From an uncultured Gammaproteobacteria bacterium (GTDB lineage: Bacteria; Patescibacteriota; Patescibacteriia; 2-01-FULL-39-33): a DNA stretch of 64,000 bases. The position numbers and the translations under genes are program-made. A model generated the notes under the pieces. That model did not search any database, was not told where the DNA came from, and saw only the letters and a program-made list of their open reading frames with translations. This document shows, piece by piece, positions 19,569 through 52,727 of the stretch. The stretch's first letter is position 1; every line of letters starts with the position of its first letter. The DNA lies in contig CAZNIV010000001.1 in the NCBI GenBank assembly GCA_964573235.1, forward strand, positions 3,709 to 67,708, written 5' to 3'.

Positions 19569-21152
19569 TTAAATCAAACTCGTGCCCGTCATTTCTTTTG
19601 GCTGAGGCAAATTCATTACCTTTAAAATGGTTGGCGCCACATCAGATAAAATACCCGATGGCTGAACCAAACTCAAATCGGAACTTGGAGCATCCATGCC
19701 ACCCATCGTCTTGCCTTCCCACTCTTTGCCCACCACTACAAACGGCACCGGATAACTGCTATGTTCTTTATCTATTTCACCAGATTGCAAGTTAATTAAC
19801 TCTTCAGCATTGCCATGATCGGCGGTTAAAAACAAAATGCCATTTTTGGCCAAAACTAGTTCGCTGATTTGCTTAACGCAACCATCTACCACTTCGCACG
19901 CCTTAATGGTCGCTTTTAAATCCCCAGTATGCGCCACCATATCCAAATTAGCAAAATTAATCACGATAAAATCATATTTATCAGCCATAATGGCTTCACA
20001 AGTTTTTTTAGCAATTTCTTTTACTGACATTTCTGGCTTTTCAGCGTAAGAACTTACACGAGGTGACGGCACCAAAATCCTATCTTCACCTTTGAACTCT
20101 TCTTCTAAGCCACCATTAAAAAAGAAAGTGACATGGGCATATTTTTCTGTTTCGGCAATATGTAGTTGTGTTAAACCGGCGTCAGATATTACCTTAGCCA
20201 ATGGATCATGAATCAAATCTTGTTTAAAAGCCACCTCCACTGGCAAGTCTTTTTCATATTCCGTCATCGCCACAAAATACAAATCCTTCAAATATTCGCG
20301 CGGAAATTTTTCAAAACCAGGCAACACAAAAGCCTTAGTAATTTCACGAGCACGATCAGAACGATAATTAAAGAAAATTATGGAGTCGCCAGATTTAACT
20401 TGCGCCACCGGCTTGCCTTTTTTAGTAATGACTACCGGTATAAATTCTTCATCATAAACTTTTTTATCATAAGAAGCCTGAACCGCTTCGGTGGCGTCAT
20501 CAAAATAGTTGGTGGCCTTGCCTTGAGTCATAGCATCATAAGTTAAAGCAATACGCTCCCAATGATTATCGCGATCCATGGCATAAAAACGGCCAGACAA
20601 AGTGGCAATTTGCCCAATCTTATCTTTTTCTATTTTATGCTTAATTTTATTGATCATATCGATGCCAGAATTATACGGCATATCGCGACCATCCAAAAAA
20701 GCATGAATATAAACTCGATTAAATTTTTGCTTTTCACATAAATCTAATAAAGCAAATAAATGATTAAGCGAGCTATGCACCCCACCGGAAGAAGTTAAGC
20801 CCATAATATGCAAATCTCCTTTAGTTTTTTTAGCATGAGTAATAGCCACGACAAATTTTTCATTAACAAAAAAATCGCCACCAGAAATGGCGTGATCAAT
20901 TAATGGTAAATTCTGATAAAGCAACTTTCCTGATCCTAAATTTAAATGACCAACCTCGGAATTACCAAACTCACCCCATGGCAAACCAACAGACTCACCC
21001 GAAGCCTGAAGGGTTAAAGCGGGATAGCTTTTTAATAAATTATTCAGAGCTGGAGTATTAGCCGAAGAAATGGCATTAGAACGTGATAGCGGAGCCACTC
21101 CCCAACCATCAAGAATCAATAATACTACTGGCTTTAATCTCTTATTGGTCAT
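19569..21152 (-). CDS. gpmI: 2,3-bisphosphoglycerate-independent phosphoglycerate mutase (iPGM), copy A
   Basis: LLILDGWG; catalytic Ser motif GNSEVGHLNLG; full-length alkaline-phosphatase-superfamily iPGM. Confidence 0.85.
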   Translation of the reverse strand: MTNKRLKPVVLLILDGWGVAPLSRSNAISSANTPALNNLLKSYPALTLQASGESVGLPWGEFGNSEVGHLNLGSGKLLYQNLPLIDHAISGGDFFVNEKFVVAITHAKKTKGDLHIMGLTSSGGVHSSLNHLFALLDLCEKQKFNRVYIHAFLDGRDMPYNSGIDMINKIKHKIEKDKIGQIATLSGRFYAMDRDNHWERIALTYDAMTQGKATNYFDDATEAVQASYDKKVYDEEFIPVVITKKGKPVAQVKSGDSIIFFNYRSDRAREITKAFVLPGFEKFPREYLKDLYFVAMTEYEKDLPVEVAFKQDLIHDPLAKVISDAGLTQLHIAETEKYAHVTFFFNGGLEEEFKGEDRILVPSPRVSSYAEKPEMSVKEIAKKTCEAIMADKYDFIVINFANLDMVAHTGDLKATIKACEVVDGCVKQISELVLAKNGILFLTADHGNAEELINLQSGEIDKEHSSYPVPFVVVGKEWEGKTMGGMDAPSSDLSLVQPSGILSDVAPTILKVMNLPQPKEMTGTSLI

Positions 21153-21154
21153 AA

Positions 21155-22714
21155 CTACAATAAACTATCTTTAGTCATTAATGGATCTTTTTTAACTCCC
21201 ATTAATTTTAATATCGTTGGCGCCACATTACCCAGGCAACCGCCAGTTTTTAACTGAGTTTTATGATTAAAATCACGACCCACTAAAATAAATGGCACTT
21301 GATTACCTGTGTGTTCCGTAATAATTTCACCGGTTTCTAAATTAAGCATGTACTCTAGATTACCATGATCAGCGGTAATAATCAATGCACCCTTAGCTTT
21401 AAGCACGGCTTGTAACACTTTTTTGACATACTTGTCAACTGCCTCTGCCGCCTTAATTCCAGCCTTAAAATTACCCGTATGCCCTACCATATCCGGACAA
21501 GCAAAATTAGCGGCAATAAAATCATACTTGCGAAGCGCGCCTAAAATTTTAGTCGTAATTTGAGCCGTAGACATCACTGGCTTCAAATCATAAGAATCAA
21601 CCATTGGCGATGGCACCATTACCCGATCCTCGCCATCAATTTTATCAGCATAACCACCATTAAAAAAGTAAGTCATATGAGCATACTTTTCACTCTCGGC
21701 AATATAAATTTGTTTTTTATCTTTTAACGCTAACGGCAAAGTTTCTCTTACATCCTCTGATGGATAAGCAGTATAGATAGTATCCAGATCAGGACCAAAA
21801 TCAGTCATGGCTACAAACAATAAATCTTGCAAAACTTTCTTACGCTTCGGCGCCCCTAAATTTTTACCCTCAAAATCTTTCTGCACAAAAAGCTTCGTTA
21901 ATTGGCGCGCGCGATCAGAACGCAAATTGAAATACACCAGCGCATCTTTATCACTAATACGGGGCAACATCTTATCACCATCATACATAATTACCGGCTC
22001 AATAAATTCATCAGTCACATTGGCATTATACGCTCTAGTAATACCTTCTTGCGGACTATTCCCTTTATGGCCAACCCCAAGAACCATCGCTTCGTAAGCC
22101 TTATTATTCCTATCCCAAGATTTTTTTCGATCCATAGCATAAAAACGACCAATTATAGTGGCAATTTTTTCTTTTGGGGTTAAAAATCTTTCTAAGGCCT
22201 CTACCGCCTTTAAAGCCGAGCGCGGTGGAGAATCACGACCATCAGTAAATAAGTGTAAATAAATATTACCCGTTGTAACGCGCCTAAAAACCATCAAAAG
22301 AGCCATTAAATGATCTGGACTACTGTGTGGACTTTGATCAGTAGACAATAAACCCATTAAATGAATGTTAGATTTATTATTTTCAACATGCTTAATCGCC
22401 GCCAAAAAAGCCGGGTTTTTAAAAAATTCACCCGTGCTAATTTGCTTAGAAATTTTTACCACATCCTGATCCACAATTCGGCCAGCGCCAAGATTAAGAT
22501 GACCCGCTTCAGAATTACCCACCTGCCCTAACGGCAAACCAACAGGCAAACCAGAAGCTTCCAAAGTAACCCATGGGTATTTACGATACAAACCATTGAT
22601 CGTTGGGGTTTTGGCCATGAAAATCGCATTAGACGCATCCGATTTCCCCAATCCCCAACCATCAAGAATTAGTAAAACAACTTTTTTATAAATTGGCGCT
22701 TTAGCTTTAGCCAT
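21155..22714 (-). CDS. gpmI: 2,3-bisphosphoglycerate-independent phosphoglycerate mutase (iPGM), divergent copy B
   Basis: LLILDGWG; GNSEAGHLNLG; roughly 40% identity to copy A; placed 2 nt upstream of copy A. Confidence 0.8.
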   Translation of the reverse strand: MAKAKAPIYKKVVLLILDGWGLGKSDASNAIFMAKTPTINGLYRKYPWVTLEASGLPVGLPLGQVGNSEAGHLNLGAGRIVDQDVVKISKQISTGEFFKNPAFLAAIKHVENNKSNIHLMGLLSTDQSPHSSPDHLMALLMVFRRVTTGNIYLHLFTDGRDSPPRSALKAVEALERFLTPKEKIATIIGRFYAMDRKKSWDRNNKAYEAMVLGVGHKGNSPQEGITRAYNANVTDEFIEPVIMYDGDKMLPRISDKDALVYFNLRSDRARQLTKLFVQKDFEGKNLGAPKRKKVLQDLLFVAMTDFGPDLDTIYTAYPSEDVRETLPLALKDKKQIYIAESEKYAHMTYFFNGGYADKIDGEDRVMVPSPMVDSYDLKPVMSTAQITTKILGALRKYDFIAANFACPDMVGHTGNFKAGIKAAEAVDKYVKKVLQAVLKAKGALIITADHGNLEYMLNLETGEIITEHTGNQVPFILVGRDFNHKTQLKTGGCLGNVAPTILKLMGVKKDPLMTKDSLL

Positions 22715-22720
22715 TTTTTA

Positions 22721-23977
22721 TTAAGCTAATTTTAATTCTTCAGCAATTTCCATCAAACGATTATATTTAGTCACCCTTTCAGCGCGACATAAAGAACCAG
22801 TCTTAATATATTCAGCGTTAGAAGCGACTGCTAAATCAGCGATAAAATCATCGACAGTTTCACCTGAACGATGAGAAACAGCGATACTATATTTATGTTT
22901 CTGTGCTAATTTCATACATTCAACAGTTTCGGAAACGGTACCAATTTGATTTAACTTAATCAAAATAGAATTAGCAATATGCTTTTTAATACCTTCAGCT
23001 AAAATTTTTGGATTGGTCACAAACAAATCATCACCAACCAAGCCAATTTTATCGCCCAAAACTTTAGTCAACATAGCCCAACCAGTCCAATCACTTTCAC
23101 CTAAACCATCTTCCAAAGTTTCAATTGGATATTTTTCAGTCCAACCCTTATACATTTCTACCATTTCAGCCGAAGTGCGCTGTTTGCCATCCGCCTTCAT
23201 GTCATAAATATCATTTTCATGAAATTCGGAAGCGGCCGCATCAATAGAAATACGCACATCAGAACCAAATTTATAACCAGCAGTTTCTACGGCTTTAGCA
23301 ATAGTTTGCAAGGCCATTTCATTACCCGCTAATTTAGGTGCATAACCACCCTCGTCACCAACAGTAATTGGAAAACCATCCGCTTTTAAAATCTTTTTTA
23401 AGGTATGAAAAATCTCCGCGCCACAACGAACCGCTTCGTGAATATTTGTTTGTTGCGGAGTAACCATAAATTCCTGAATATCAATAGACCAACCGGCATG
23501 AGCGCCACCATTCATAATATTCATCATTGGCTTAGGAAACTTCCAACCATCCAATTTCTTCCAATATTTTTCTCTCAAATAAGCGTATAATGGCTTTTTA
23601 CTAGCAATCGCTGCGGCACGACAAACGGCCAAAGACACACCCAACATCGCATTGGCTCCAAGATTGCCCTTATTATCCGTGTTATCCAACTCAATCATTA
23701 AGGCATCAATCTCTTTTTGCTTTTTAGGATTCATTCCAATTAAGCGTGGAGCGATAATATTATTAACATTAGAAACTGCTTTTAAAACACCCAAACCATT
23801 GTAACGCGCTTTATCACCGTCACGCAATTCTAATGCTTCACGGCTACCAGTAGAGGCTCCCGAAGGCACACCAGCCCAAGCTTTGATTTTATTAGACAAA
23901 ACTACTTCTACTTCTACCGTTGGGTTGCCACGAGAATCTAAAATTTCTCTGGCAGTAATCTTTGCAATGGTTGCCAT
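22721..23977 (-). CDS. eno: Enolase
   Basis: 418 aa; canonical enolase motifs (SIDIQEFM, IKLNQIGT, SHRSGETED-like SHRSGETVD). Confidence 0.9.
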   Translation of the reverse strand: MATIAKITAREILDSRGNPTVEVEVVLSNKIKAWAGVPSGASTGSREALELRDGDKARYNGLGVLKAVSNVNNIIAPRLIGMNPKKQKEIDALMIELDNTDNKGNLGANAMLGVSLAVCRAAAIASKKPLYAYLREKYWKKLDGWKFPKPMMNIMNGGAHAGWSIDIQEFMVTPQQTNIHEAVRCGAEIFHTLKKILKADGFPITVGDEGGYAPKLAGNEMALQTIAKAVETAGYKFGSDVRISIDAAASEFHENDIYDMKADGKQRTSAEMVEMYKGWTEKYPIETLEDGLGESDWTGWAMLTKVLGDKIGLVGDDLFVTNPKILAEGIKKHIANSILIKLNQIGTVSETVECMKLAQKHKYSIAVSHRSGETVDDFIADLAVASNAEYIKTGSLCRAERVTKYNRLMEIAEELKLA

Positions 23978-23991
23978 ACTTTATATTTTAT

Positions 23992-24798
23992 TTATTTTAT
24001 TTCATAAGTAACTGAAACCTCAACTGTAATATCCTGAGTTCCAGACTCAATCACGGCCGTTGGCGCAACTGCCTTATCTACACTGCCCGCCATCATGTCC
24101 GAGCGATAATAATTAATTGGACTTGGTACATAACCACTACCCTCAGTAAAGCTAACTACAGAGCCCAATTTAACGCCAAGCTGTTTAGCTAATTCATTAG
24201 CCTTGTCTTTAGCTTGCTTGATTGCCAAATTTCTCGCTTGCACTTTTAACTCAGTTGGATCATCAATGGTAAATTGTGGACCATTAACGCTATTAGCACC
24301 CAAAGATCCAGCATTGGTTAAAATATCACCGATATTATCAAAATTTCTTACCTTTACTTCAACATTTTGACTAACTGTATAGCCAATAATTTTAGATTGA
24401 TTATTAGACCAATCATACCTTGGCTGAATAGAATAATTATCAGTCTTAATATCTTTAGCCTCAACTTTAAATTGAGATTTAACTGTGTCCATAATCTTAT
24501 TCATCTTGGTATTATTGTCTTTTTGCGCCTCAGTTACCGTAGATTTTTCAGAAATCACACCAATATTAATAACCGCTACGTCTGGAGTAGCTGAAACCTT
24601 GCCTGTACCATTAAACGCGATTTGATTTTTATAATCTGGAGTTTTACCAATGAAATCATAAGATTTAAAAGAATTACGAGCTAATCCTAATAAATAAAAC
24701 CCTAGGACCACCAAAACTAAAATTGCAAAAGCCCCGGCAACTTTATGACCAATAGCACAGCCACAAACGCCATTAGAACAACATTTTTCCTCGTTCAT
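23992..24798 (-). CDS. SIMPL-domain (DUF541) protein with N-terminal Cys cluster and one TM helix
   Basis: MNEEKCCSNGVCGCAIGH followed by a TM helix, then an SIMPL-like ectodomain. Confidence 0.55.
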   Translation of the reverse strand: MNEEKCCSNGVCGCAIGHKVAGAFAILVLVVLGFYLLGLARNSFKSYDFIGKTPDYKNQIAFNGTGKVSATPDVAVINIGVISEKSTVTEAQKDNNTKMNKIMDTVKSQFKVEAKDIKTDNYSIQPRYDWSNNQSKIIGYTVSQNVEVKVRNFDNIGDILTNAGSLGANSVNGPQFTIDDPTELKVQARNLAIKQAKDKANELAKQLGVKLGSVVSFTEGSGYVPSPINYYRSDMMAGSVDKAVAPTAVIESGTQDITVEVSVTYEIK

Positions 24799-24813
24799 AT
24801 TTTTTAGTTATTA

Positions 24814-26004
24814 CTAAAACTTAATTAATTTAGATAAACCCGGTAATTCTTTACCTTCTAAAAACTCTAACATCGCTCCGCCACCAGTAGAAATAAAATT
24901 GAATTTCTTTTCTAACCCCATTTTGCGAATCATTTGCACTGTTTCACCACCACCAACAATCTTCTCCCCCTTGGCTTTGGCTAACAATTTAATAATTGCC
25001 TCGGTGCCTTTTGTAAAAGTTGGATTTTCAATCAATCCCATCGGGCCATTCCAAACAATCATCTTAGCTTGTTTAATGATACTAGCATAAAGCTGGATAG
25101 TATCCGGACCAATATCTAGAATTATTTCATTTTCTTTTACTTTTGCCAAGGCACCCAATCGCCCATGACTACTTTTAAAACTTTTAGCCATTAAACCATC
25201 AACTGGCACCACTAATTTATTTTCCGTTAGCTCAATGTTTTTAATTTCTTCTTCCATGTCTTTTTCTACTAGCGACTTACCTACCGAAACGCCCTTAATC
25301 AACAAAACGGTATTGGCCAAAGCGCCACCAAGCAAAATTTTGCTCGCCACCTTTAAAAAATTCTTAATTACCTTAATTTTAGTGGAAATTTTTGCCCCAC
25401 CAATAATCGCCACCATCGGCTTTTTGGGTTTATATAATGCCTTAGATAAATTAACCACCTCTGATTCTAACAATAAACCGGCATAACTAGGCAAAAATTC
25501 CTGAATCGTAGAAACCGAAGCTTGGGCGCGATGATCAACCGCAAAAGCGTCATTAACATAAATATCAGCCAAACTAGCTAATTGTTTCGCAAACTCCTGA
25601 TCAGCTTGCTCTTCACGCGCATCAAAACGAATATTTTCTAACATCAAAATATCACCATTTTTCATTTTAGCGATCAATCTATTGGTTTCTTCTCCAATAA
25701 TTACTGAACTCTTTTTAACTTTTTTCTTTAATAAATTGGATAATCTTTTAACCACCGGTGTTAAGCGCAAATCTTCTACTACTTTACTATCTGGTCGCCC
25801 CAAGTGGGCCATCAATATTAATTTTGCCCCTTTTTTAGCCAAAAATTTAAGTGTCGGCAAGGTTTTTACAATGCGATAATCTTCACTTTTGCCCACCTTT
25901 CCGTCTTTAGTTAGTGGCACATTAAAATCCACGCGAATCAATACGCGCTTCCCTTTCCAATTTTTAACTTGTTTTATAGACTTTATTTTCATAGCGTTTA
26001 ACAT
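24814..26004 (-). CDS. pgk: Phosphoglycerate kinase
   Basis: 396 aa; RVDFNVP, GGGA, GGGETV motifs. Confidence 0.9.
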   Translation of the reverse strand: MLNAMKIKSIKQVKNWKGKRVLIRVDFNVPLTKDGKVGKSEDYRIVKTLPTLKFLAKKGAKLILMAHLGRPDSKVVEDLRLTPVVKRLSNLLKKKVKKSSVIIGEETNRLIAKMKNGDILMLENIRFDAREEQADQEFAKQLASLADIYVNDAFAVDHRAQASVSTIQEFLPSYAGLLLESEVVNLSKALYKPKKPMVAIIGGAKISTKIKVIKNFLKVASKILLGGALANTVLLIKGVSVGKSLVEKDMEEEIKNIELTENKLVVPVDGLMAKSFKSSHGRLGALAKVKENEIILDIGPDTIQLYASIIKQAKMIVWNGPMGLIENPTFTKGTEAIIKLLAKAKGEKIVGGGETVQMIRKMGLEKKFNFISTGGGAMLEFLEGKELPGLSKLIKF

Positions 26005-26035
26005 TTTATCATAAATTTAACCAAAAACGAAAGGG

Positions 26036-26293
26036 TTACTTATCCCCCTCAATCTCTCTTAAAATCCAACTATGCCCTGTAATCTTATTAATTTTTAACA
26101 CTATCCCCTCAGCTAAAGTACCTTTAGATAACATATCCACATTAAATTTAACATTTTCTGGTAACACTTCTTCGCCATGTTCTACGATGGAACCCAAATC
26201 TACTGTCGCCGATTTAACGTTATTTAAACTATTTTTTTCAGCATGCTCTAAAATAGTTTTAAAAATAATATCTGCTAAGTGAAAATCGTGCAT
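26036..26293 (-). CDS. hypA: HypA-like nickel metallochaperone N-domain protein lacking the zinc-finger domain
   Basis: Probable start MHDFHL (internal Met of the track ORF 26036..26329). It aligns to the HypA N-terminal domain (MHE...KHGAKRVT..V.LKIGAFS...LAFCF..V..GSVAEG..L). No CxxC...CxxC follows, and the next gene starts 31 nt downstream. Confidence 0.5.
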   Translation of the reverse strand: MHDFHLADIIFKTILEHAEKNSLNNVKSATVDLGSIVEHGEEVLPENVKFNVDMLSKGTLAEGIVLKINKITGHSWILREIEGDK

Positions 26294-26304
26294 AATAATT
26301 TTAA

Positions 26305-27591
26305 TTAATGAGTAGCACAAGAAATGCAAGGATCATAAGCACGAATCAAAGCGCGGATTTTTAGTGATCGTTTTTTGGCATCCATCTTAATCACATCTGG
26401 TAAATAAGTTTTAATATCTTCTTCTAGATTACGCAGAAAAGAACAAGTTGGTGTAATGATATCACAATTAGTGATAAAACCATTAGCGTCAATTTCATAA
26501 TGATGATACAAGGTGCCTCGAGGAGCTTCTACTGCCGCCGCCCCAATACATAATTTACCAAGTGGATTAGCCCCGGCCACGATACCCAGTTCTGCTAACC
26601 GACTAGCTTCGGGCTTAATTTCTGCCACCAAGTGTGTTAATAATTTACCCACCTCTTCTACGGCATGCAAAACCTCAATTGCTTGCGCGGTAATATTACA
26701 GAAACTATTGTATTGTGGTAATTCCCAATTTAAACTTTTTAAAACTCCTGCCGCCAAAGGATTTAGTTTTTGATGATTCAAATTTATTCTAGCTAACGCG
26801 CCAACCATAAACGGTTCGCCCTTTAGTGTAGCTGATTTAGCATGACGATACGGTTCTTCAATTTCTTTAATATTCTTAGCAAAGTTAACCGCTGGCACTT
26901 TTTTAAAACCACCCAAATTCAAATCACCATCATAAATAGCATAATTATGATCGGCCGATAACGCCACATGTTTAGTGGTACGAGAAAATTTAGGGTATTT
27001 AATTTTTAACACTAAGTGAATTAAGGATAAGGAGTCTTTCAATACCGCTTGATATTGACCCAAAAGCACTTGCAATTCCTCTTTATTTGGTGTCACCTTA
27101 AATCCACCCACTTCGGAATTAATCGGATGAATAGCGCGACCACCAATCACTTCAATAATCTTTAGCGCCCAATCACGAACGCGCATCGCACTTTGAGTTT
27201 CTTTAGGATATTGTTTAATTAATTGCAAATCATTTTCAATATCAAAAAAATCAGCTAACGATAAAAAAAATAAATGAAGCGCATGTGAGTGAATAATTTG
27301 CGCCATCGACATAGCCTGTCTGAGCTTAACCGTTTGTTCACTAACTTTAATATCTAAAGCATTTTCAATTGCCTTAATTGAGGTTAAATTATGCACCACC
27401 GGACAAATACCACAAATACGCGCCGTGACAATTGGCGCCTCTGTAAAATGACGACCAACCAAAATCCCCTCGATCAACCTCGTGCCCTCAGCCGTTAACA
27501 ACTTAGCCGATTTAACATCGCCATTCATAATCTCAGCCACAAAATCAGTGTGACCTTCCATTTTACCAATATGATTGATTTGGATTTTCAT
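26305..27591 (-). CDS. hydA: [NiFe]-hydrogenase large (alpha) subunit, group 3 (3b-like)
   Basis: L1 motif RICGICPVVH near the N-terminus; L2 motif DPCISCATH is the extreme C-terminus, so there is no cleavable extension; 428 aa. Confidence 0.85.
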   Translation of the reverse strand: MKIQINHIGKMEGHTDFVAEIMNGDVKSAKLLTAEGTRLIEGILVGRHFTEAPIVTARICGICPVVHNLTSIKAIENALDIKVSEQTVKLRQAMSMAQIIHSHALHLFFLSLADFFDIENDLQLIKQYPKETQSAMRVRDWALKIIEVIGGRAIHPINSEVGGFKVTPNKEELQVLLGQYQAVLKDSLSLIHLVLKIKYPKFSRTTKHVALSADHNYAIYDGDLNLGGFKKVPAVNFAKNIKEIEEPYRHAKSATLKGEPFMVGALARINLNHQKLNPLAAGVLKSLNWELPQYNSFCNITAQAIEVLHAVEEVGKLLTHLVAEIKPEASRLAELGIVAGANPLGKLCIGAAAVEAPRGTLYHHYEIDANGFITNCDIITPTCSFLRNLEEDIKTYLPDVIKMDAKKRSLKIRALIRAYDPCISCATH

Positions 27592-27594
27592 ATC

Positions 27595-27849
27595 TTAAAT
27601 AAAAATTTTAATAACTAAAAGTCCAACCACTATTCCCAACACATTAAACAACATATCCAAACTACTTTCTTTTAAATCATTAGTACGCATAAACTGATCA
27701 CTAATTTCTTTAGTCAAACCAACCGCCAAAGAAAATAAAACCGCCGCCAAATAACTACCAGAAATCGCATAAACCGTACTTGACATCATTGAAGAAATTA
27801 AAAAATGCGCTACCTTGTCATAATTATTTGTCAGCCTTAGGTAAAACAT
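27595..27849 (-). CDS. Small (84 aa) two-TM membrane protein encoded between the hydrogenase small and large subunit genes
   Basis: It fills the 232-nt gap between the delta and alpha genes. It has two hydrophobic helices. The start may be an internal Met, which would reduce the 26-nt overlap with the delta gene. Confidence 0.4.
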   Translation of the reverse strand: MFYLRLTNNYDKVAHFLISSMMSSTVYAISGSYLAAVLFSLAVGLTKEISDQFMRTNDLKESSLDMLFNVLGIVVGLLVIKIFI

Positions 27850-28654
27850 TTATTTTCTTTTTAATCACTTTTTTAGTTGCCTTCTGTTCTTTAGACCATT
27901 CTTGCATGATTGTATCTTTAGCGCCAAATACTTCCATTACGCGATCAACTTGTTTTTTTGTAAATTTAGACAATAAATAAGCCATCAAATTACTCACTTG
28001 CGCGCCCTCAAATAACCCGCGACAACCCCAACAAGCCTGTTTACTCTTCAAGCACACTGCTTCACAGCCACCCAAGGTTATTGGCCCTAAGCAAATTTGA
28101 CCTTTTTGCAATAAACACTCATAACCTAATTTTTGACATTCGTAACATACCGGATTTTGCGAAATTCTTGGTTTACGCCCAGCCAATAACTGATAACCAA
28201 TTTCCATAAACTCTTTACCGGTAATTGGGCAGCCAGGAATAGTCAAATCTACTTTCACAAAATTATCCACTTCTTTGATATCTGGATTAGGCACCTTAAT
28301 ATCATGATAAACTTGTTTAATCGTCTTTTTCTTATCGCCATAGTTTTTCATCTCCCAAACACCGCCTAGCGCCGCGCAATTGCCCAGCACTACCAAAAAA
28401 TCAGATTGCTGACGTAATAATTTTAATAGTTTAATATTTTCTTCTGTCACCGGATTACCTTCCACAAAACAAATATCAAACCGACGCGCCGTCATTGGCT
28501 CATCTTCAATTAATCTAAATTCTTCCACCTCAAAATTTTTCAACCAACTTAAAAATCTTGGACCTTCATCCAACATAGCAAATTGGCACCCTTCACAAGA
28601 GGTTAAGCCCACAATAGCAATTTTTAATTTTGTAGTTTTATTTTTTGCCTTCAT
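27824..28654 (-). CDS. hydD: [NiFe]-hydrogenase small (delta) subunit, group 3
   Basis: SCEGCQ proximal-cluster motif, GNCAALGG, IPGCPI, and a C-terminal Cys-rich region for the medial/distal clusters. Confidence 0.8.
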   Translation of the reverse strand: MKAKNKTTKLKIAIVGLTSCEGCQFAMLDEGPRFLSWLKNFEVEEFRLIEDEPMTARRFDICFVEGNPVTEENIKLLKLLRQQSDFLVVLGNCAALGGVWEMKNYGDKKKTIKQVYHDIKVPNPDIKEVDNFVKVDLTIPGCPITGKEFMEIGYQLLAGRKPRISQNPVCYECQKLGYECLLQKGQICLGPITLGGCEAVCLKSKQACWGCRGLFEGAQVSNLMAYLLSKFTKKQVDRVMEVFGAKDTIMQEWSKEQKATKKVIKKKINVLPKADK

Positions 28655-28692: not shown

Positions 28693-29952
28693 CTAAATTT
28701 TCACCTTCAACTCTTCTTCAAGCATCTCATAGCTTAAATCCCCTTTAAATAGTGCCCATTTTTCCATTTTTTTCTCCTGATCATAGAATTTATTCTCATA
28801 AATTTCATAATCGGCGCGATACTTTTCTGGCGTTAAATTAAGCATGATCGCATTAGCGCCAGCCATAAACGCCTTATGCCGAAATTGCTCACCATAAAGC
28901 GTTTCCATGGCAGTAGTAACGGGTATTCTGGCTTTAGGTAAAACTAAGCGAATAGTGGCAATAATTTTTAACATCATTTCTTCTGGTAAAATTATCTCAT
29001 CAACCAACGGGGTATTTTTCGATGGCACTAATGGCCCAAATGACGGCATGAAAGCATTAAACCTTTTTAGCGTCAAAATATCTACCGCTAAATCAGTTAC
29101 TGATTGCTTAGGTAAGCCAGCGATAAAACCAGTGGCAATGGTATAACCTAATTTTAAACAACCATCAATTAATGCACGGCGATCGGCACCATCTTCGCCT
29201 TGATGCAAATCAGTATACAATCTATCATTCATTTCTTCGTATCTAATTAAAACGCCATTAGCACCAGCTTTTTTTAATTGCTGATAAACTTCCAAAGAGC
29301 GACCACCAATACTCAAATATAAAAACGCGCGAAAACGCTTTTTAATTTCTGTCACTAAACTTATTAAATCAGCGTCAGAATAAGTATAATCTTCCCCGGA
29401 TTGCAATACTAAAATTTTATAACCTTTATCCTCTACCGCTTCTCGCACCGCTTCAATAATTTCTTCGCTCGTCATACGATAACGCTTTACCGCCTGATTA
29501 CCACATCTAATGCCACAATACTGACAATTACTAGCGCAATAATTAGAAAACTCAATCAAACCATGCACGCAAATATGATCTTTAATACTAGTTTTTCTGG
29601 TAATATTGGCCTCAGAATACAACTCATTTAAATCAGCTTCGGATTTTAAGGTTAATAAATATTCAATATCTGCCTGTTGCAATTTGTCTGACTTAGCTTT
29701 AGCTAAGATATTTTTTAATTCTTGATTTTGACTGGGCTCGGCCAATGGATAAGCTTTTAGCAACGCAAAAATTTCTTCTGCCTCTGAAGCGGAAATTTTT
29801 TTCAGTAAAAAATCATTGGTAAATAAAACCCAGTCACCGATCTGTAAGTCTTCTGGCGTTAACATTTTTACTTCTTTTTCTCGGCCACTCACTTCTAATT
29901 TGGCCGAAACGCCAGAAACCGACAAGACCTTTGCCGGTAAAGTCAAACACAT
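28693..29952 (-). CDS. Fusion protein: N-terminal HypC/HupF-like domain (MCLTLP...) + HydE/HmdB/BioB-like radical SAM domain
   Basis: Residues 1-70 align with HypC (MCLTLPAKV...GDWVLFTNDF versus E. coli MCIGVPGQI...GQWVLVHVGF). Residues ~120-419 carry CASNCQYCG (CxxxCxxC), GLIEFSNYC, KRYRMT and LQSGED, strongly resembling HydE as remembered. One uninterrupted ORF. Confidence 0.8.
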   Translation of the reverse strand: MCLTLPAKVLSVSGVSAKLEVSGREKEVKMLTPEDLQIGDWVLFTNDFLLKKISASEAEEIFALLKAYPLAEPSQNQELKNILAKAKSDKLQQADIEYLLTLKSEADLNELYSEANITRKTSIKDHICVHGLIEFSNYCASNCQYCGIRCGNQAVKRYRMTSEEIIEAVREAVEDKGYKILVLQSGEDYTYSDADLISLVTEIKKRFRAFLYLSIGGRSLEVYQQLKKAGANGVLIRYEEMNDRLYTDLHQGEDGADRRALIDGCLKLGYTIATGFIAGLPKQSVTDLAVDILTLKRFNAFMPSFGPLVPSKNTPLVDEIILPEEMMLKIIATIRLVLPKARIPVTTAMETLYGEQFRHKAFMAGANAIMLNLTPEKYRADYEIYENKFYDQEKKMEKWALFKGDLSYEMLEEELKVKI

Positions 29953-29961
29953 AAATTTAAA

Positions 29962-30108
29962 TTACATTCTGTTTTTACGAAAAATGGTAGCCAAACCCAA
30001 AACGATCAAAGCAATTGGCCAAATCAAATCCCAATTGATCGCTGGCACTACGCCCAAATACTTGAGCAAGAAAACCAAACCCACAACTACCAATGCTACT
30101 CCCAACAT
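29962..30108 (-). CDS. Candidate small (48 aa) hydrophobic membrane peptide between hydG and the hypC-rSAM fusion (not in the supplied ORF track)
   Basis: Manual translation gives MLGVALVVVGLVFLLKYLGVVPAINWDLIWPIALIVLGLATIFRKNRM. The 168-nt gap in this otherwise tightly packed operon has no other explanation. Confidence 0.3.
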   Translation of the reverse strand: MLGVALVVVGLVFLLKYLGVVPAINWDLIWPIALIVLGLATIFRKNRM

Positions 30109-30120: not shown

Positions 30121-30942
30121 TTAATTAAATTTAATATAATCTTTAATTTCACTCCAGGTGAATACCGGGCCATCTTTACATACATAATACGGGCCAATAG
30201 CGCAATGTTGGCAAACACCAACCCCGCAATACATTTTCTTTTCTAATGACACATAAATATTTTCATCTTTTATGCCTTTGGCCTGCAATTGTTCTACCAC
30301 AAACTTATACATCACTGGCGGACCAACAATAATGGCAATAGAATTAGAAGTAATAACGCGTTTAGCCAATAAATTAGTAATTAAGCCTTTATCCCCTTTC
30401 CAATCTTTTTCTGGCTTATCTAAAGTTAAATTAAACTCGCTATGCTTTTTCCAGTAATCATGCTCAGATTTAAAAAGTATTGAGTGCTGATTTAAGCAGC
30501 CATAAAAAATTTGCATCACCGTATTATCTAATCGGCCGGCCATATAATCAACAATAATTGGCCTAAGTGGAATAAAACCACAACCGCCACCAATTACAAT
30601 CAACGGTAAATCTTTAGCCTTTTCCACGTCAAAACCGTTGCCAAACGGGCCACGAATATCTACCTCATCACCTACTATTAAATTACTGAATTTATGCGTC
30701 AATAAACCCACGTCACGAATAGCTAACTCAAAATAATTTTTTGCCTCAAACGGCGACGAACAAATACTAATCGGACACTCGCCCCAACCCGGCAAACCCA
30801 CTTGCATAAATTGGCCATGAATAAAAGCAAAGTTTTTTTGCTGCTTAGTATCAATAAATTTTAAACGCCACAAAATTGTATCGGGCGACAAGCACTCAAC
30901 GGCAACAATTTTAGCTTTTTGCGGTTGATAAATATTGATCAT
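30121..30942 (-). CDS. hydG: Sulfhydrogenase/3b-hydrogenase gamma-like subunit (FAD/NAD(P)-binding oxidoreductase with C-terminal 2Fe-2S; PyrK/AsrB-like)
   Basis: FNR-like fold with IVIGGGCGFIPLRPI and a C-terminal CGVGVCQHC...C cluster motif. Confidence 0.75.
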   Translation of the reverse strand: MINIYQPQKAKIVAVECLSPDTILWRLKFIDTKQQKNFAFIHGQFMQVGLPGWGECPISICSSPFEAKNYFELAIRDVGLLTHKFSNLIVGDEVDIRGPFGNGFDVEKAKDLPLIVIGGGCGFIPLRPIIVDYMAGRLDNTVMQIFYGCLNQHSILFKSEHDYWKKHSEFNLTLDKPEKDWKGDKGLITNLLAKRVITSNSIAIIVGPPVMYKFVVEQLQAKGIKDENIYVSLEKKMYCGVGVCQHCAIGPYYVCKDGPVFTWSEIKDYIKFN

Positions 30943-31904
30943 AGATTTTTAAGCACCTCATTGATTTTAATTCCCACTGGGCAAACATTACTGCAACGAT
31001 TACAACTAACACAACCCGGCAAGCCGTATTCTTTAGGAATGCGCACAAATTTATGGGTATACCAAAAATAAATCTTTTGTTTAGCGGTATCTAGCGATTT
31101 ATGCCCGCCAGCCACCAAAGAAAAATCATTATAAAAGCAATTACCCCACTTGCGAACGCGACCGGTATTATTCACATCATTTTTATCTTCTAAATCAAAG
31201 CAAAAACAAGTCGGGCATACAATAGAACACTTACCACAAGCGATGCAAGTTTTGCCCAATTCTTCCCAAATTGGCTGATCAAAAGACTGATCAACTTTCT
31301 TTTTTAACAATAACATGCGCTTATCTTGGCCTTCTTCGGCAATCGGCCCAGCAAATTCTACGTGCTGATATTTTTTGGCACCACGCTTTTCTAAAAATAA
31401 CTGACCTTTTTCTGATCCGGAATATAAATCATAACCATCATTAACTCTGGCCATCAAAAAGATATCAAACACTAAGTGCTCTAAAAAGTTTTCTTCCCAA
31501 TTATGGGTAAAGACTTTATATTTTTTAAATTCCTCGGGCGCGCCCGTACCTAATCCCACTATTAAAGTACGACGACGACGTTCTTGATAATATTTATCCT
31601 TAGAAAATACCTGCTCCCACAAAGCCAACGCCTTTAAATCCAAAACATTAATGCCCACCAAAGAAAATTTTGGCCAAACACGAGTTTCTTCTTTTAAATT
31701 ACCGCCACTAATGCCAAATAAGCGTTCCTCAGCCGGAATTAGCCATTGCTTAAAAGAATTAACTGGCATTTCGGCCGACCAATCAATATTTTTTAAATCT
31801 GTTACTGGCGCTACCTTAAGTACACCATCAATTCTTTGAGGTGCTATAATCTGATATTCTTTAGAAATGGCTAAAATTAAATTTTGTAATTCGGTTTTAT
31901 TCAT
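30939..31904 (-). CDS. hydB: Sulfhydrogenase/3b-hydrogenase beta-like subunit (4Fe-4S ferredoxin domain protein; AsrA-like)
   Basis: CIACGKCSIVCP and CVSCNRCSNVCP motifs; overlaps hydG by 4 nt. Confidence 0.7.
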   Translation of the reverse strand: MNKTELQNLILAISKEYQIIAPQRIDGVLKVAPVTDLKNIDWSAEMPVNSFKQWLIPAEERLFGISGGNLKEETRVWPKFSLVGINVLDLKALALWEQVFSKDKYYQERRRRTLIVGLGTGAPEEFKKYKVFTHNWEENFLEHLVFDIFLMARVNDGYDLYSGSEKGQLFLEKRGAKKYQHVEFAGPIAEEGQDKRMLLLKKKVDQSFDQPIWEELGKTCIACGKCSIVCPTCFCFDLEDKNDVNNTGRVRKWGNCFYNDFSLVAGGHKSLDTAKQKIYFWYTHKFVRIPKEYGLPGCVSCNRCSNVCPVGIKINEVLKNL

Positions 31905-47454: not shown

Positions 47455-49026
47455 TTAACGCAAAGTAAAGGTTTTTAGACTAACTTCAAAATCAGATAAC
47501 GCTTTAGTATATAATTTTTTATCTGTGCCTACATACTCAAAGCCAATTGTTATCCATCTATCTCCCGATCTTAAGTTATAATTAACTGAATAACCTAAGA
47601 CATTATTTTTATCACCTAAAAAAGTATAGCTTGTTTTCAGCCAATTATTTTTATTTAACTTATACTTCACAACTGAACTCAATTCTTTAATATTTAAACC
47701 AGTCAATCCTGCCATTTTATTAACCTGACCAACCCGCTGACGATAATATGTCTGATAGCCATTATTGTCTAAAGACTTAGTCGCCTCATTAACCGGCGAG
47801 ATATTTACTGTGGCTCTAAAATTAGAAAAACTAGGACTGGCCGCTAAAATCAAAATTGGGCTAGTTTTATCTTTTCGCCCTAAAATAGACCAATTCTTAC
47901 CAACTTTAAGATAAAAATTAGGGTTAATATTACTATACTGATTTACATAACTAATTGGCCGATTATCGTTACTAAAATTAATATCCTCTAACATTCCATT
48001 AATTGCAATAAGATCTTTATCTTCATAGCCATAATTATAAGCTAGGGCCACTAAATATTCTTGACGAGCAAAAAATCTAATTTTATTTTCTACCCCTGCT
48101 AAATAAAAAGCTACCTCTAAACCCTCTTGGCCACTGGCAGTAATAATTTTTTCTGTTTTAATAATTTCTACCTGACCCAAATTTGGTCCACTTTTAATAT
48201 AAGGAATGGCATCGGATAAAGTTGCCGTTCGCGCCATACGAATAAGCGAAACAGTTAAATTACCACCGCCGGCATTATTTTTTTTATCAATTAATACGCC
48301 ATTTTCACCTAAAATCTGAAACCGCCAAACATCCGACTTAGTTAATTCAAAATAAGGATAAAAACTAATGAAAGTGTTTGTACCCTGCAAAATCTTAGCT
48401 TTTTTAACTAATAATTCCACATTTCCCTGAAAAGACACCTTAATAGCTGGGTTATCTATACTATTAACCACCCATTCATTAATAACCGCTTTTTCATTTT
48501 TCCCCCAATTAGCCGTACTATTAATATTATCAATTGCCTTAGTAATTGGCATAAAATCATAAACTGAATCTGAACTAACATCAGTCACGTTATTAATTTT
48601 AAGTAGGGCCAATCCCATACCCTTATTAAAGGCGATCAAAGATCCGGTATAAGAACAATCTACATCTTTATTTGCCTCTTTCTGTAAGCAAATATGATAA
48701 CCAGTTTCCTCTCTAGATCCATCAAAAGCACTTTCTACTACCGCTGTATCATAATTAACCAAAACTACCCCCTTGGAATTAACAGTATAACCAGCTCCCT
48801 CTTTAATCTTTTGCACAAAATAATCCGGATCCACCACAAAAGTTTTTACTGTCGCGATAGCCTTGAAATTTTCAGCCAAAACCACGGGCGTGGAAGTAGT
48901 AGCGGCCATAGCTACATTAAAAACAGCTAGACTTAAACCAATAAGGCCTAAAAAGCTCAAAAAAATAGTAGTTTTTCTATTCATATTTGATAATAAAAAC
49001 TGTTTAATAAGCCAATTATAACACAA
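47455..49026 (-). CDS. Hypothetical secreted/membrane-anchored protein
   Basis: N-terminal signal/TM segment (the likely start is the internal MNRKTTIFLSF); no family recognised. Confidence 0.5.
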   Translation of the reverse strand: MCYNWLIKQFLLSNMNRKTTIFLSFLGLIGLSLAVFNVAMAATTSTPVVLAENFKAIATVKTFVVDPDYFVQKIKEGAGYTVNSKGVVLVNYDTAVVESAFDGSREETGYHICLQKEANKDVDCSYTGSLIAFNKGMGLALLKINNVTDVSSDSVYDFMPITKAIDNINSTANWGKNEKAVINEWVVNSIDNPAIKVSFQGNVELLVKKAKILQGTNTFISFYPYFELTKSDVWRFQILGENGVLIDKKNNAGGGNLTVSLIRMARTATLSDAIPYIKSGPNLGQVEIIKTEKIITASGQEGLEVAFYLAGVENKIRFFARQEYLVALAYNYGYEDKDLIAINGMLEDINFSNDNRPISYVNQYSNINPNFYLKVGKNWSILGRKDKTSPILILAASPSFSNFRATVNISPVNEATKSLDNNGYQTYYRQRVGQVNKMAGLTGLNIKELSSVVKYKLNKNNWLKTSYTFLGDKNNVLGYSVNYNLRSGDRWITIGFEYVGTDKKLYTKALSDFEVSLKTFTLR

Positions 49027-49097: not shown

Positions 49098-52000
49098 TTA
49101 AAGTGATGGCGTTATTTTTAATTTTGTGGTTCTAGCTTCTAGGGTTGGCTTTAGTTGCACATAAAAATTATAATAGTTAGAAGTATAAACCTTATCATCT
49201 ATAGATATCTGGAATATACCATTGCAAGTCGTGGCACTACCATCGACAAAAACAAATTGATTTGAATCAATGGGCATTGAGAAGTTTTTAGAAAAAAATG
49301 GCTGCTGATCTTGTTTAATGGTTGGATTAGAATAACAAGTGAACTTATTATTATAATATGGCGCTAATTTGTCAAAAAATCTCTTTAATGTGAAATCAAC
49401 CGTATAAGATCCACTACCAATATCTGTGGCCGTCATTGAATCTACATCTAACATGTGACTTAATTCTAATGGAGCTGGGATAGTTTCACTCTCAATGTTT
49501 CCGTCAGTAGTAACTTTTTTAACGCTAACCTGGCAATTATCAGCAAGTAAATCAGACAATTTAACTCCATCAATGGTTATAACCTTAAACTGATAACCTT
49601 TTTTACCTCCAAGATCAACCCATTCTCCAAAATCATCTGGTCTATCGAGATTCATCTCTACGGGTAAATCATCCACAAAAAATGTCTGAGCAGAAACAGT
49701 TCTATCTTCTTCTTGGCTACCACATTTATAATGCGCCACTAAAGCATCTCCATTTTTAACATCACCTTTAACAAAAGCATAAATATCGAAAGGATTAGCT
49801 TCGTTACCAATCTTATTTGAGCTTATAGTACGGATACCATCACCTATTTTTAATTCCAAAGTGGCGGAGGAAATATGTATATAAAGGTTAGCAATAAAAT
49901 AGCTCTGGCAACCGTCTTGACGATAAGTAAATTGAAGTGTCTGATTTGCTTTTAGGTATATTCTCTTGTAAGGAATATTATAACCTAGATCAGTTGGAGG
50001 ATCAAACATATCTCCGCTGGTTAATTCTTTACCATCAACCAAATAAGAAAGACCTGAAATTGGGCGTGTATAAGGAAAATCTACGGCAATTTTTAAAGTG
50101 GTTTTATTAACAAAAGATTGAATGTCAAGCGTACTACTACAATAATAACTCCCGTTAGGAACTACTAACTTTTGAGTGTACTGCTCTTTATCTACAATAA
50201 AATCTTCTGTTACTAGCCTCTCACAGATACCATTATTATTCTTAAAATCTTTTGGACATATTACTGATTTACCGATAGTCACCCCTGTCGACTTGTCATT
50301 GAAACTTGTCAGATCAATACAAGTACCCTTTTTGGTAGCATCGTAAGTTGGTCCACCTGGTGAAAAAGATATAGTATAATCTTCTGGGAAATTAGAAGTT
50401 AATATAATCGAAGATAAGCCATAAAAACCAGTTGGAAATGATACGGTACTAGTGCCTTGTTTGTAATAATCAGTATAATATCCACTTTCATTTTTACAAC
50501 CGTAAGCATTATAGCCTTCGACTAGAGCCGTTTTATCGTAAGCCGTATAGGTAGTGCCGCTATTAGTTTGATCAGGGAATTTTGGAGTTCCAACACCCAA
50601 AGCATTGACAATACTACCAGAGAAAGAGTACCTCACCCCTCTAATTAAACCCTTTATAACCATCGGTTCACTACTAGTCGCTGAAAAATATATATCCTTT
50701 AAGCCATAGACTGGGTCATGAACATAAATAGTCTTTTTAGTCTTTGGATCGGTAGAAGTACTAACCCTATAAACAGAAACTAAATAACCAGTGATTGGCA
50801 AATTACCCGTATCAACACCTTGGGTATCAATAAAAATCTCTGCCCCACCCATAATATTGGTGACACTCTTTGGGGCGCTAGAAACAGAAGTTGTAATTGG
50901 AGTAATAGCCACTGATTTAGCGGAAGCTAGACTAGTACCGTAACCATTATTAACAGTCGCTGTGAAAGTATAAGCGACGCCCGGAAGAAAACCCGTAGGA
51001 AAAGTAACTGGGCTATAAGCACTGATGGCAATTAGTCTACCTTTATCGCTCTGGTCAATTGGAGTGGTTGGCTCGGCTATAACTGTATATTTAATTGGTG
51101 AAGCGCCACTCTTATTTTCGGGCATAAGAATATCAACCTGAACACCAGATGATGTGGCGAGAAAATAATTAGCAAAGGTTTTATAGCCATTTGCATAAGC
51201 GTGGGGTAAAACGGAACTTGGCGTAGCTGGTCCAACCGGGGGAATAACCTGAATTGATGAGGATTTAATACTGGTGCTTTGACCATTATAATTAGCCAAA
51301 GATACATTAAAGGTATAGTAAGCGCCTGGTTCGAATTTACTAGAAACAATAATGGGCGAGCCAACTTTAGAAGAGCCGCCACCAACAAGAGAAGAATTAG
51401 CAACACAGTCTGGACAATTCTTATAAGTACCCACCGACTGATACGCAACATAAGTGTTTGTCGTCTGGGTTTTGGCATTACGACAAACATCCACAGTAGA
51501 ATTGGTAGTACAACCAAGAATACTTCCTTTGTCTATAGGTTCAGTAAAGGTTAGTTTGATTTGGGGATTAGCAGTTTTATTTGGATATAGGTCACCACAA
51601 GTCCAAACATATGAAGGAGGTGTAATTCCAAGAGTAGCTTTTTCGCATTGAGTTGGATTTCTAACGGGCAATGAAACTGAAGCTAACAAATTAGTTGGGG
51701 GGTTGGGAGCAATCTTGGTATAGCACTTACCATCACCACCCGAAACACCAGGAGCACTACAAGCTGATGCTCCACAAGTTGGCGGATTATTCATACCATT
51801 AACACAAACACACGATGTACCCGATAATTTAGTACCAGAGGGACAAGTAGTTACGGAAGGAGGGGTACAAGTTGGCGGATTAGTGCCACCATTAGCGCAA
51901 ACGCAAGTATTATTGCTAGATAAAATAGTTTTTCCACTACAAACTGGCGTGGTTGACAAAGTACAAGTTGGTGGATTAGTCTTGCCATTAGCGCAAACAC

Positions 52001-52727
52001 AATTGGATCCTGAACGAATCGTACCAGAAGGACAAGTAGCTACTGGAGGGGTACAGGTTGGTGGATTAGTACCACCATTAGCGCAAACGCAAGTATTATT
52101 ACTAGACAGGATAGTTACACCACCACAAACTGGCGTAGTTGGCAAAGTGCAAGTTGGTGGATTGGTTTTACCATTAGCGCAAACACAGGCATTACCTGAC
52201 AAATAAGTTCCCGCAGCGCAAGCCATAGGGGGAGTACATGTAGGGTAATTCTTTCCACCATTAGAACAAACGCAACTATTAGATGCAGTAGAAAAGAAGC
52301 CAACAGAAGCACAAGGCGCTACTGGCAAGGTACAGGTTGGTGGGTTAGTTTTACCATTAGAACAAACGCAAAAACCATTAGATAAAAAAGTGCCGACAGC
52401 ACAAGTTTTTGGAGTGGAGCAAATCGGATAATCGTTAGCACTATTAATACAAACACATTGATTGTTAACAATTTTAGCATTGGCTGGGCAAATAATACCA
52501 TTACCTACCGACGGAACAATGCTACACGTTGGGTAATTAGTCGCTCCGTTTGAACAAGCACATGTACCATTAACCACTTTAGCTGTCGCTGGACAAACGA
52601 CCTGAGTTGAAACCGAACTAATAGCCGCAAAGGCCAATCCCCCAGTCACTGCCAAGGCTAGGGTTAAAACAATCGCTTTTGTACTAATTTTTGTTAAAAT
52701 CCCAACTGACATTTGCGTTTTTGTCAT
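49098..52727 (-). CDS. Giant (1209 aa) secreted/surface protein with ~12 tandem Cys-rich ~33-aa modules followed by a beta-rich region
   Basis: Signal/TM segment at the N-terminus; repeated C-x(7-9)-CxCxNGxTN(P/Y)PTC(T/S) modules at aa ~45-330; a strong intrinsic terminator follows downstream. Confidence 0.7.
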   Translation of the reverse strand: MTKTQMSVGILTKISTKAIVLTLALAVTGGLAFAAISSVSTQVVCPATAKVVNGTCACSNGATNYPTCSIVPSVGNGIICPANAKIVNNQCVCINSANDYPICSTPKTCAVGTFLSNGFCVCSNGKTNPPTCTLPVAPCASVGFFSTASNSCVCSNGGKNYPTCTPPMACAAGTYLSGNACVCANGKTNPPTCTLPTTPVCGGVTILSSNNTCVCANGGTNPPTCTPPVATCPSGTIRSGSNCVCANGKTNPPTCTLSTTPVCSGKTILSSNNTCVCANGGTNPPTCTPPSVTTCPSGTKLSGTSCVCVNGMNNPPTCGASACSAPGVSGGDGKCYTKIAPNPPTNLLASVSLPVRNPTQCEKATLGITPPSYVWTCGDLYPNKTANPQIKLTFTEPIDKGSILGCTTNSTVDVCRNAKTQTTNTYVAYQSVGTYKNCPDCVANSSLVGGGSSKVGSPIIVSSKFEPGAYYTFNVSLANYNGQSTSIKSSSIQVIPPVGPATPSSVLPHAYANGYKTFANYFLATSSGVQVDILMPENKSGASPIKYTVIAEPTTPIDQSDKGRLIAISAYSPVTFPTGFLPGVAYTFTATVNNGYGTSLASAKSVAITPITTSVSSAPKSVTNIMGGAEIFIDTQGVDTGNLPITGYLVSVYRVSTSTDPKTKKTIYVHDPVYGLKDIYFSATSSEPMVIKGLIRGVRYSFSGSIVNALGVGTPKFPDQTNSGTTYTAYDKTALVEGYNAYGCKNESGYYTDYYKQGTSTVSFPTGFYGLSSIILTSNFPEDYTISFSPGGPTYDATKKGTCIDLTSFNDKSTGVTIGKSVICPKDFKNNNGICERLVTEDFIVDKEQYTQKLVVPNGSYYCSSTLDIQSFVNKTTLKIAVDFPYTRPISGLSYLVDGKELTSGDMFDPPTDLGYNIPYKRIYLKANQTLQFTYRQDGCQSYFIANLYIHISSATLELKIGDGIRTISSNKIGNEANPFDIYAFVKGDVKNGDALVAHYKCGSQEEDRTVSAQTFFVDDLPVEMNLDRPDDFGEWVDLGGKKGYQFKVITIDGVKLSDLLADNCQVSVKKVTTDGNIESETIPAPLELSHMLDVDSMTATDIGSGSYTVDFTLKRFFDKLAPYYNNKFTCYSNPTIKQDQQPFFSKNFSMPIDSNQFVFVDGSATTCNGIFQISIDDKVYTSNYYNFYVQLKPTLEARTTKLKITPSL
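51740..52600 (-). repeat. Tandem coding DNA repeats (~99 nt unit in a ~190-200-nt higher-order repeat, ~85-90% identical) inside the Cys-rich giant protein gene
   Basis: For example 51841..52000 versus 52031..52190: ggacaagtag...gttggtggattagt...ccattagcgcaaac... recurs. This also produces the repetitive antisense ORF at 51883..52206. Confidence 0.8.

Follow-up and report, generated by a model that had tools for sequence, protein, structure and literature searches.

A conserved zinc-less HypA-like protein beside a [NiFe]-hydrogenase in Patescibacteria

The hydrogenase operon and its last gene

The window considered here, by which is meant the whole 64-kb stretch of DNA that was analysed, carries on its minus strand an operon of hydrogenase genes in the order beta, gamma, membrane peptide, HypC-HydE, delta, alpha and mini-HypA, where mini-HypA denotes a short, zinc-less relative of HypA. 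The features of the operon, together with the gene that follows it, are given below by their coordinates in the window and with the basis of each assignment.

24814..26004, minus strand: phosphoglycerate kinase (pgk); ORF translation, with the PGK annotation taken from the gene table of a syntenic homologue
26036..26293, minus strand: zinc-less HypA (mini-HypA), ORF of 85 aa; PF01155, AlphaFold2, Foldseek, family alignment, motif test and dN/dS
26305..27591, minus strand: [NiFe]-hydrogenase large (alpha) subunit, group 3b-like; Pfam NiFeSe_Hases at 149 bits, NCBIfam sulfhydrogenase ShyA/HydA alpha over residues 1-428
27824..28654, minus strand: hydrogenase small (delta) subunit; Pfam Oxidored_q6, NCBIfam sulfhydrogenase HydD/ShyD
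28693..29952, minus strand: HypC domain (residues 1-68, beginning MCL) fused to a HydE-like radical SAM enzyme; Pfam HupF_HypC, Radical_SAM and BATS
29962..30108, minus strand: 48-residue two-helix membrane peptide, LiaF-TM-like; ORF list, with the homologue in locus L004 annotated LiaI-LiaF-like_TM1
30121..30942, minus strand: hydrogenase gamma subunit (FAD/NAD(P)-binding diaphorase); Pfam NAD_binding_1, DHODB_Fe-S_bind and FAD_binding_6
30939..31904, minus strand: hydrogenase beta subunit (4Fe-4S dicluster electron transfer); Pfam Fer4_22 at 97 bits

The client enzyme is, as judged from the sequences of its four subunits (alpha, delta, beta and gamma), a group 3b [NiFe]-hydrogenase. Its large subunit contains the metal-binding motifs RICGICPVVH and DPCISCATH, with all four of the metal-binding cysteines present. 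Moreover, in each of the 39 full-length homologues of this subunit that were examined, the C-terminus is the final histidine of DPCxxCA[TV]H, with no extension beyond it. The large subunit has no C-terminal peptide and, therefore, no endopeptidase step would be needed in its maturation. The four subunits are arranged as in the CPR-specific 'hyd1' clade, for which Jaffe et al. (2020, PMC7304191) describe a hypC-like neighbour and do not mention HypA.

Mini-HypA is the last maturation gene of the operon, separated from alpha by 11 nt, after which the minus strand runs on, over 19569..26004, into pgk, a SIMPL-domain gene, enolase and two tandem paralogues of cofactor-independent phosphoglycerate mutase (19569..21152 and 21155..22714). 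The operon order recurs in nearly all of the 46 loci that were fetched, with variation in the HypC partner and in occasional methyltransferase-like genes, and the 48-residue membrane peptide is conserved in many of the related operons. Wherever the upstream region is present in these loci, mini-HypA lies directly after alpha or with one intervening gene, and the alpha-HypA-pgk-SIMPL-eno synteny is kept in most of them. Such conserved synteny suggests that H2 metabolism and lower glycolysis are expressed together.

The mini-HypA ORF, which opens with an ATG at 26293 and closes with a TAA at 26038..26036, has 85 codons and encodes a protein, MHDFHLADIIFKTILEHAEKNSLNNVKSATVDLGSIVEHGEEVLPENVKFNVDMLSKGTLAEGIVLKINKITGHSWILREIEGDK, which has the N-terminus MHDFHL and contains five histidines and no cysteine. 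HypA function requires a free Met1-His2 N-terminus. In this regard, ATG 26293 is the likely start because MHD opens every homologue, and a longer ORF of 97 residues, which could be read from an upstream TTG at 26329 and would overlap the 3' end of the preceding gene, was rejected on the grounds of both the homologues and the N-terminal requirement. At the other end of the gene, a spacer of exactly 31 nt lies between the stop and the start codon of pgk (26004).

Several other ORFs of the neighbourhood deserve a brief description. A hydrophobic ORF of 84 residues, at 27595..27849 on the minus strand, shares 26 nt with the 3' end of the small-subunit gene. Its VanZ/YfiM-like matches are weak, and none of the other loci contains a homologue of it; the gene found at this position in L004-type loci, likewise of 84 residues, has an unrelated sequence. 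The ORF may be lineage-specific or may not be a gene. Many of the related operons contain, after gamma or between alpha and HypA, genes for membrane-anchored proteins of 170-186 aa that resemble SAM-methyltransferases and carry the motif DLGCGDG (L001 5411-5926 and 9556-9996, L003 3335-3892, L004 5871-6431). These genes are absent from the window, and their products were rejected as nickel factors, given that DLGCGDG is a SAM-binding motif and that they have no metal motif. Further along the window are three long ORFs on the minus strand, of 1209, 1213 and 1058 aa (49098..52727, 53981..57622 and 60791..63967, respectively), plus one of 523 aa at 47455..49026, none of which has a Pfam match at E <= 1e-5.

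Family membership, fold and conservation

An earlier note on this DNA had likened the ORF to the N-terminal domain of HypA, with an MH(D/E) nickel motif at its start and both CxxC pairs of the zinc site missing, and had proposed a search with the Pfam HypA profile as a check. When run, that search placed residues 1-74 of the protein on positions 1-70 of the 112 in the profile (PF01155) at 32.9 bits, above the gathering cut-off of 28.9, and the same profile is matched by all 30 of the aligned mini-HypA homologues. The MHD start is likewise invariant (30 of 30 aligned sequences), and the loss of the CxxC pairs agrees with a protein that contains no cysteine. The HypA equivalog models of NCBIfam match residues 1-72 at 31-37 bits against cut-offs of 88-146, scores which are low because the zinc-domain part of the model (about a third to 40%) has no counterpart in mini-HypA. 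By sequence, the sole significant relative of solved structure is the HypA of T. kodakarensis (3a43, E = 4e-7).

An AlphaFold2 model built from the family alignment has a mean pLDDT of 93 and a pTM of 0.81, and the elements that it predicts are a helix at residues 5-20, a strand at 25-33, a short hairpin at 37-42, a second helix at 45-56 and two further strands at 65-70 and 76-84. Comparison of this model with the PDB by Foldseek returned HypA structures as its top 14 matches, 12 of them at E <= 0.001. In the full-chain alignments to 3a43_B and 5yxy_F, where the zinc domain appears as a gap, TMq is 0.84; where the alignment covers only the first ca 70 residues it is 0.69. As predicted in this way, mini-HypA adopts the complete alpha/beta fold of the HypA nickel-binding domain.

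In canonical HypA the zinc domain is situated between the last two strands, and the chain comes back from it into the final strand of the nickel domain. The whereabouts of this final strand in mini-HypA is, therefore, the feature which tells an internal loss from a simple truncation. A MAFFT alignment of short and canonical HypAs left the placement of the C-terminal strand ambiguous, and the placement was taken instead from the full-chain Foldseek alignments and from a scan with a position matrix of the 12 C-terminal residues of the family (G-x-x-W-x-L-K-E-I-E-G-E). Of 93 canonical HypAs with two CxxC pairs, 82 have their best match to this matrix after the last CxxC, in most cases right at the end of the chain (as in GDEILIKRLEVE), and the mean score is 7.6 bits in canonical HypAs as against -2.4 in shuffled sequences. 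The final strand of mini-HypA, GHSWILREIEGDK, is thus the counterpart of the canonical strand that follows the second CxxC.

On the strength of the AlphaFold2 model, the full-chain Foldseek alignments and the C-terminal motif test, the change is best described as an internal excision rather than a truncation: a zinc domain of ca 35 residues is, in the predicted structure, cut out and a five-residue turn stands in its place, leaving the nickel domain complete. The earlier description of a HypA cut down to its N-terminal domain accordingly stands as far as the missing zinc site is concerned and has to be amended as to the manner of its loss, the last strand having been kept.

With regard to the canonical HypA/HybF proteins of E. 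coli, H. pylori and T. kodakarensis (PDB 3a43, 5aun, 5yxy and 6g81), mini-HypA is alike in its N-terminal Met-His-acidic motif, in its nickel-domain fold including the final strand, and in that both adjoin [NiFe]-hydrogenase genes. It differs in having neither a zinc domain nor any cysteine, in reading Met-His-Asp where Met-His-Glu is usual, in its length (85 residues as against 113-140), in its conserved His5 and a four-residue Glu-His-Gly-Glu hairpin inserted after strand 1, and in having no hypB adjacent to it.

The family is of considerable size. A search of 5.8 billion proteins gave 72 clusters at 90% identity, with lengths of 75-102 residues, almost all of 84-86, and the named clusters among them come from Patescibacteria, Parcubacteria and Buchananbacteria MAGs. 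Some 130 zinc-less MHD-type sequences of <=100 residues were collected in a profile search of 50%-identity representatives and a word-index search; in the profile search, canonical HypAs of 112-143 residues appeared at E = 1e-7 or weaker and over positions 1-70 only. A scan of the GTDB species genomes found the family in 39 of them, the titles of which, where informative, name Patescibacteria, Buchananbacteria, Falkowbacteria, Paceibacterota or Saccharibacteria. In the 30-sequence alignment the invariant positions are M1, H2, D3, F4, H5, L6, I10, L23, G34, E38, H39, G40, N47, N51 and G83. Mini-HypA is a conserved Patescibacteria family and not a one-off.

Against this background can be set the reading in which the short ORF is a decaying remnant of a full-length hypA, or an artefact of assembly or frameshift. 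The shortness of the ORF and its low equivalog scores would fit such a reading, and yet the length of 84-85 residues and the position of the stop are shared by 39 independent species genomes and by many metagenomes. Among 64 codon-compared pairs the median dN/dS is 0.13 and the highest value 0.28, which shows that purifying selection acts on the gene in Patescibacteria. The model, moreover, is compact and confident. The earlier note had named a frameshift restoring a zinc-finger C-terminus as an observation that would count against it, and none was found, there being no CxxC...CxxC stretch in any of the three frames over 25800..26340; its further point, that no space is left on the 3' side for a separate zinc finger, agrees with the 31-nt spacer before pgk. 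Across the 47 loci, 44 of the copies are free of cysteine and no separate zinc-finger ORF is conserved in the vicinity of the gene, and rescue of the zinc finger by a split gene or a frameshift was rejected on these grounds. In view of these several lines of evidence, a remnant or an artefact is scarcely credible.

A separate Cys-rich ORF of 63-81 aa (...CINCSG...YCPHCAEELGRCECCGKRQ...) is found directly 5' of beta in three related Buchananbacteria-type loci (L004 3750-3980, L015 3838-4083, L027 2253-2444), to which it is restricted; it is absent from the window.

The nickel site and the place of HypB

The loop that follows strand 1 is about four residues longer in mini-HypA than in canonical HypAs, and of 129 zinc-less MHD proteins 126 have a histidine in it, as against 11 of 95 canonical ones. 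For His5 the corresponding figures are 97 of 129 and 1 of 95. In H. pylori HypA the N-terminal nickel site is flanked by the equivalent loop (around Asp40), while the high-affinity site of T. kodakarensis HypA is completed upon the binding of HypB by His98, a residue near the zinc domain. Comparison of the sequences thereby makes His5 and the Glu38-His39 hairpin, which would lie next to the N-terminal site, candidates for extra nickel ligands, which may replace His98 in its role. In such a case the extra histidines could render the nickel site independent of the conformational change that HypB induces. The conserved extra histidines offer a concrete hypothesis, open to mutagenesis, for how the nickel site might be completed without HypB.

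In some relatives the loop is expanded into His-rich stretches (HAGHDHHSLH, HNHKHDNQDNSCH and HDGHEEH), which resemble the His-rich nickel stores of HypB and those of SlyD, UreE and Hpn. The likeness is a functional and speculative one, in that the loop of the mini-HypA in the window has a single invariant histidine and no homology to the segments in HypB, SlyD, UreE or Hpn. The storage of nickel by the His-rich part of HypB is treated in a review (PMC12134894).

By analogy with the characterised HypAs, mini-HypA is probably a functional zinc-less HypA that inserts nickel into the adjacent group 3b large subunit. In the mechanism that we propose, Ni(II) would be held by the free amine of Met1 and by His2 (through both its side chain and its backbone), by homology with the HypAs of E. 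coli, H. pylori and T. kodakarensis, with His5 and Glu38/His39 as possible further ligands. The nickel domain would then dock on the immature large subunit, to which the HypC domain encoded in the operon would already have delivered the iron group, and the nickel would be handed over after it. The site would thereupon close without proteolysis, no endopeptidase step being involved. If so, mini-HypA would constitute a minimal model, of 85 residues, for the capture and delivery of nickel.

Two features count against this role as a chaperone, namely the use of Met-His-Asp instead of the usual Met-His-Glu and the failure to reach the equivalog cut-offs of NCBIfam. In addition, residues of the zinc site are needed for hydrogenase activity in H. 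pylori, according to a mutagenesis study (PMC5557546), and the zinc site has been described as essential for interaction with partner proteins (2026, PMC13202556). Because the zinc site matters in these accounts, a zinc-less HypA may depart from the canonical model.

Another reading is that the fold of HypA has been kept and the carriage of metal lost, leaving a docking or holding factor which keeps the extension-less large subunit open until the metals bind. In the HyhL-HypA complex of T. kodakarensis, HypA does bind the N-terminal peptide of the immature large subunit (PMC12134894), and the C-terminal peptide that normally helps to hold the site open is missing in the present enzyme. The strict invariance of Met1-His2-Asp3, however, taken with the conserved extra histidines and the His-rich loops, fits a metal site and not a docking surface, such that a purely holding role appears improbable beside that of a nickel-inserting HypA.

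Zinc-less HypAs are also found in other lineages. A second set, of 80-87 residues, starts with MHE, lacks the loop insertion and His5, and includes sequences from MAGs labelled Deltaproteobacteria and Micrarchaeota. In these proteins the zinc domain has been excised at the same place as in mini-HypA, and most of them likewise end in ...EGE. The set differs from mini-HypA in that it sits among canonical partners, hypB in L049 and HycI with HypF-C-D-E in L048. The gene order in L049 is hypA, cobW/HypB family, beta, gamma, delta and alpha, and in L048 it is beta, gamma, delta, alpha, HycI, hypA, a DsrC-domain gene, hypF, hypC, hypD and hypE; the large subunit of L048 has a 13-residue C-terminal extension, with the HycI protease present. 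In L050 a HycI protease gene lies near the zinc-less hypA and is the only such gene seen. Two of the three contexts examined, L048 and L049, adjoin subunit genes of a group 3b-type hydrogenase.

These proteins bear directly on the suggestion of the earlier note that the protein may act without HypB. Since zinc-less HypAs in L049 and L006 adjoin hypB, the zinc domain is not required for pairing with HypB, and a HypA that has lost it need not on that account be independent of HypB. Mini-HypA could, then, work in the normal manner with a HypB-type NTPase (a G3E GTPase or an Mrp/MinD-type ATPase) encoded elsewhere in the genome, a reading encouraged by the occurrence of zinc-less HypAs of 80-82 residues, from other lineages, immediately beside hypB, and by the modest length of the examined stretch, which is only ca 20 kb per genome. 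Pfam scans of the window ORFs of >=100 residues, outside ca 32-45 kb, found no further hyp genes, the ORFs at 32-45 kb having been assessed from their translations only. Searches by tblastn with E. coli HypB, HypD, HypE, HypF and HycI, and with homologues from two metagenomic loci that have zinc-less HypAs, gave no match to hypB, hypD, hypE, hypF or the protease in the 64-kb window or in the Patescibacteria loci, which amount to ca 670 kb with the window included and reach ca 10 kb to each side of the gene in each of 39 genomes. In the positive control, the hypB of L006 was detected at E = 2e-17. The lack of any match in these ca 670 kb to the HypBs of E. coli and L049 tells against a HypB encoded elsewhere, as does the confinement of the conserved His5 and the Glu-His-Gly insertion to the Patescibacteria clade, which hints at a changed nickel site. 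On balance, a distant HypB partner is a reading to be taken seriously, and one that we hold to be somewhat short of an even chance.

HypA has been described as a conserved two-domain protein with a stabilising zinc site (2026, PMC13202556; 2025 review, PMC12134894), and no description of a zinc-less HypA was found in the literature searched. The remark in the earlier note that such a protein is unusual holds good in relation to this literature, which still describes HypA as having two domains. The gene itself is not an unknown one, the databases already labelling members of the family as HypA; it is the architecture that appears to be undescribed in the literature searched. Its interest lies in the fact that a large, conserved and natural family without the zinc domain implies that the nickel domain can stand alone, and provides a natural test of what the zinc domain does.

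The accompanying maturation genes

The mini-HypA gene also serves to flag an operon with an unconventional set of maturation genes, marked by the HypC-HydE fusion, an occasional HydG, no protease and a large subunit without a C-terminal extension. Such an operon bears upon the way in which very small genomes build complex metal cofactors. In the fusion encoded in the window, the radical SAM domain scores 251.3 bits with the NCBIfam HydE model, for which the cut-off is 254.6, and the HypC domain 39.3 bits with hypC_hupF, for which it is 48. The architecture of HypC plus radical SAM is found in at least 120 clusters, with the exception of one N-terminally short member, and no description of a HypC-HydE fusion was found in the literature searched.

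The fusion is followed by a bona fide HydG in four loci, three from Patescibacteria and one from another MAG, at 469-593 bits against a cut-off of 312 (L014 4708-6081, L020 5918-7285, L025 6551-7792 and L051 10001-12749). No HypD, HypE or HypF was found near these loci, and in the other MAG the large subunit is also without a C-terminal extension. The fusion, sometimes with HydG, may open another route to the Fe(CN)2CO group, and radical SAM chemistry of the [FeFe] type might be the source of the iron ligands in this [NiFe] enzyme. Of all the leads that the locus offers, this one may be the most interesting.

About half of the related operons have, in place of the fusion, a stand-alone HypC followed by a protein of ca 250 aa with the domain DUF6390 (PF19927) and no NCBIfam hit (L004 6815-7573, and also L013, L016, L019, L021, L022, L026, L027, L032, L033, L035 and L041-L044). 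This replacement suggests that DUF6390 is an uncharacterised hydrogenase maturation factor.

A more far-reaching proposal would join these parts into a stripped-down and in part borrowed maturation kit, in which a self-sufficient zinc-less HypA, with its extra histidines in place of the HypB-dependent nickel site, works beside HypC-HydE (with HydG in some cases) or beside HypC and DUF6390, and in which HypB, HypD, HypE, HypF and the endopeptidase are all dispensed with. Taken as a whole, this proposal is rather unlikely. Were it true, a [NiFe] site would owe its iron ligands to radical SAM chemistry of the [FeFe] type.

Lastly, some names attached to these genes and genomes need to be read with caution. 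Members of the zinc-less family carry the JGI name 'Zn finger protein HypA/HybF', and the fused maturase, which lies inside a [NiFe] group 3b operon, is named by NCBI as an [FeFe] HydE maturase. A number of third-party MAGs (L008, L009, L012, L014, L016, L018, L021, L023, L028, L033, L034 and L040) are titled 'uncultured Gammaproteobacteria bacterium' despite containing a typical Patescibacteria operon, and this title would seem to be a placeholder or a mistake in the records.
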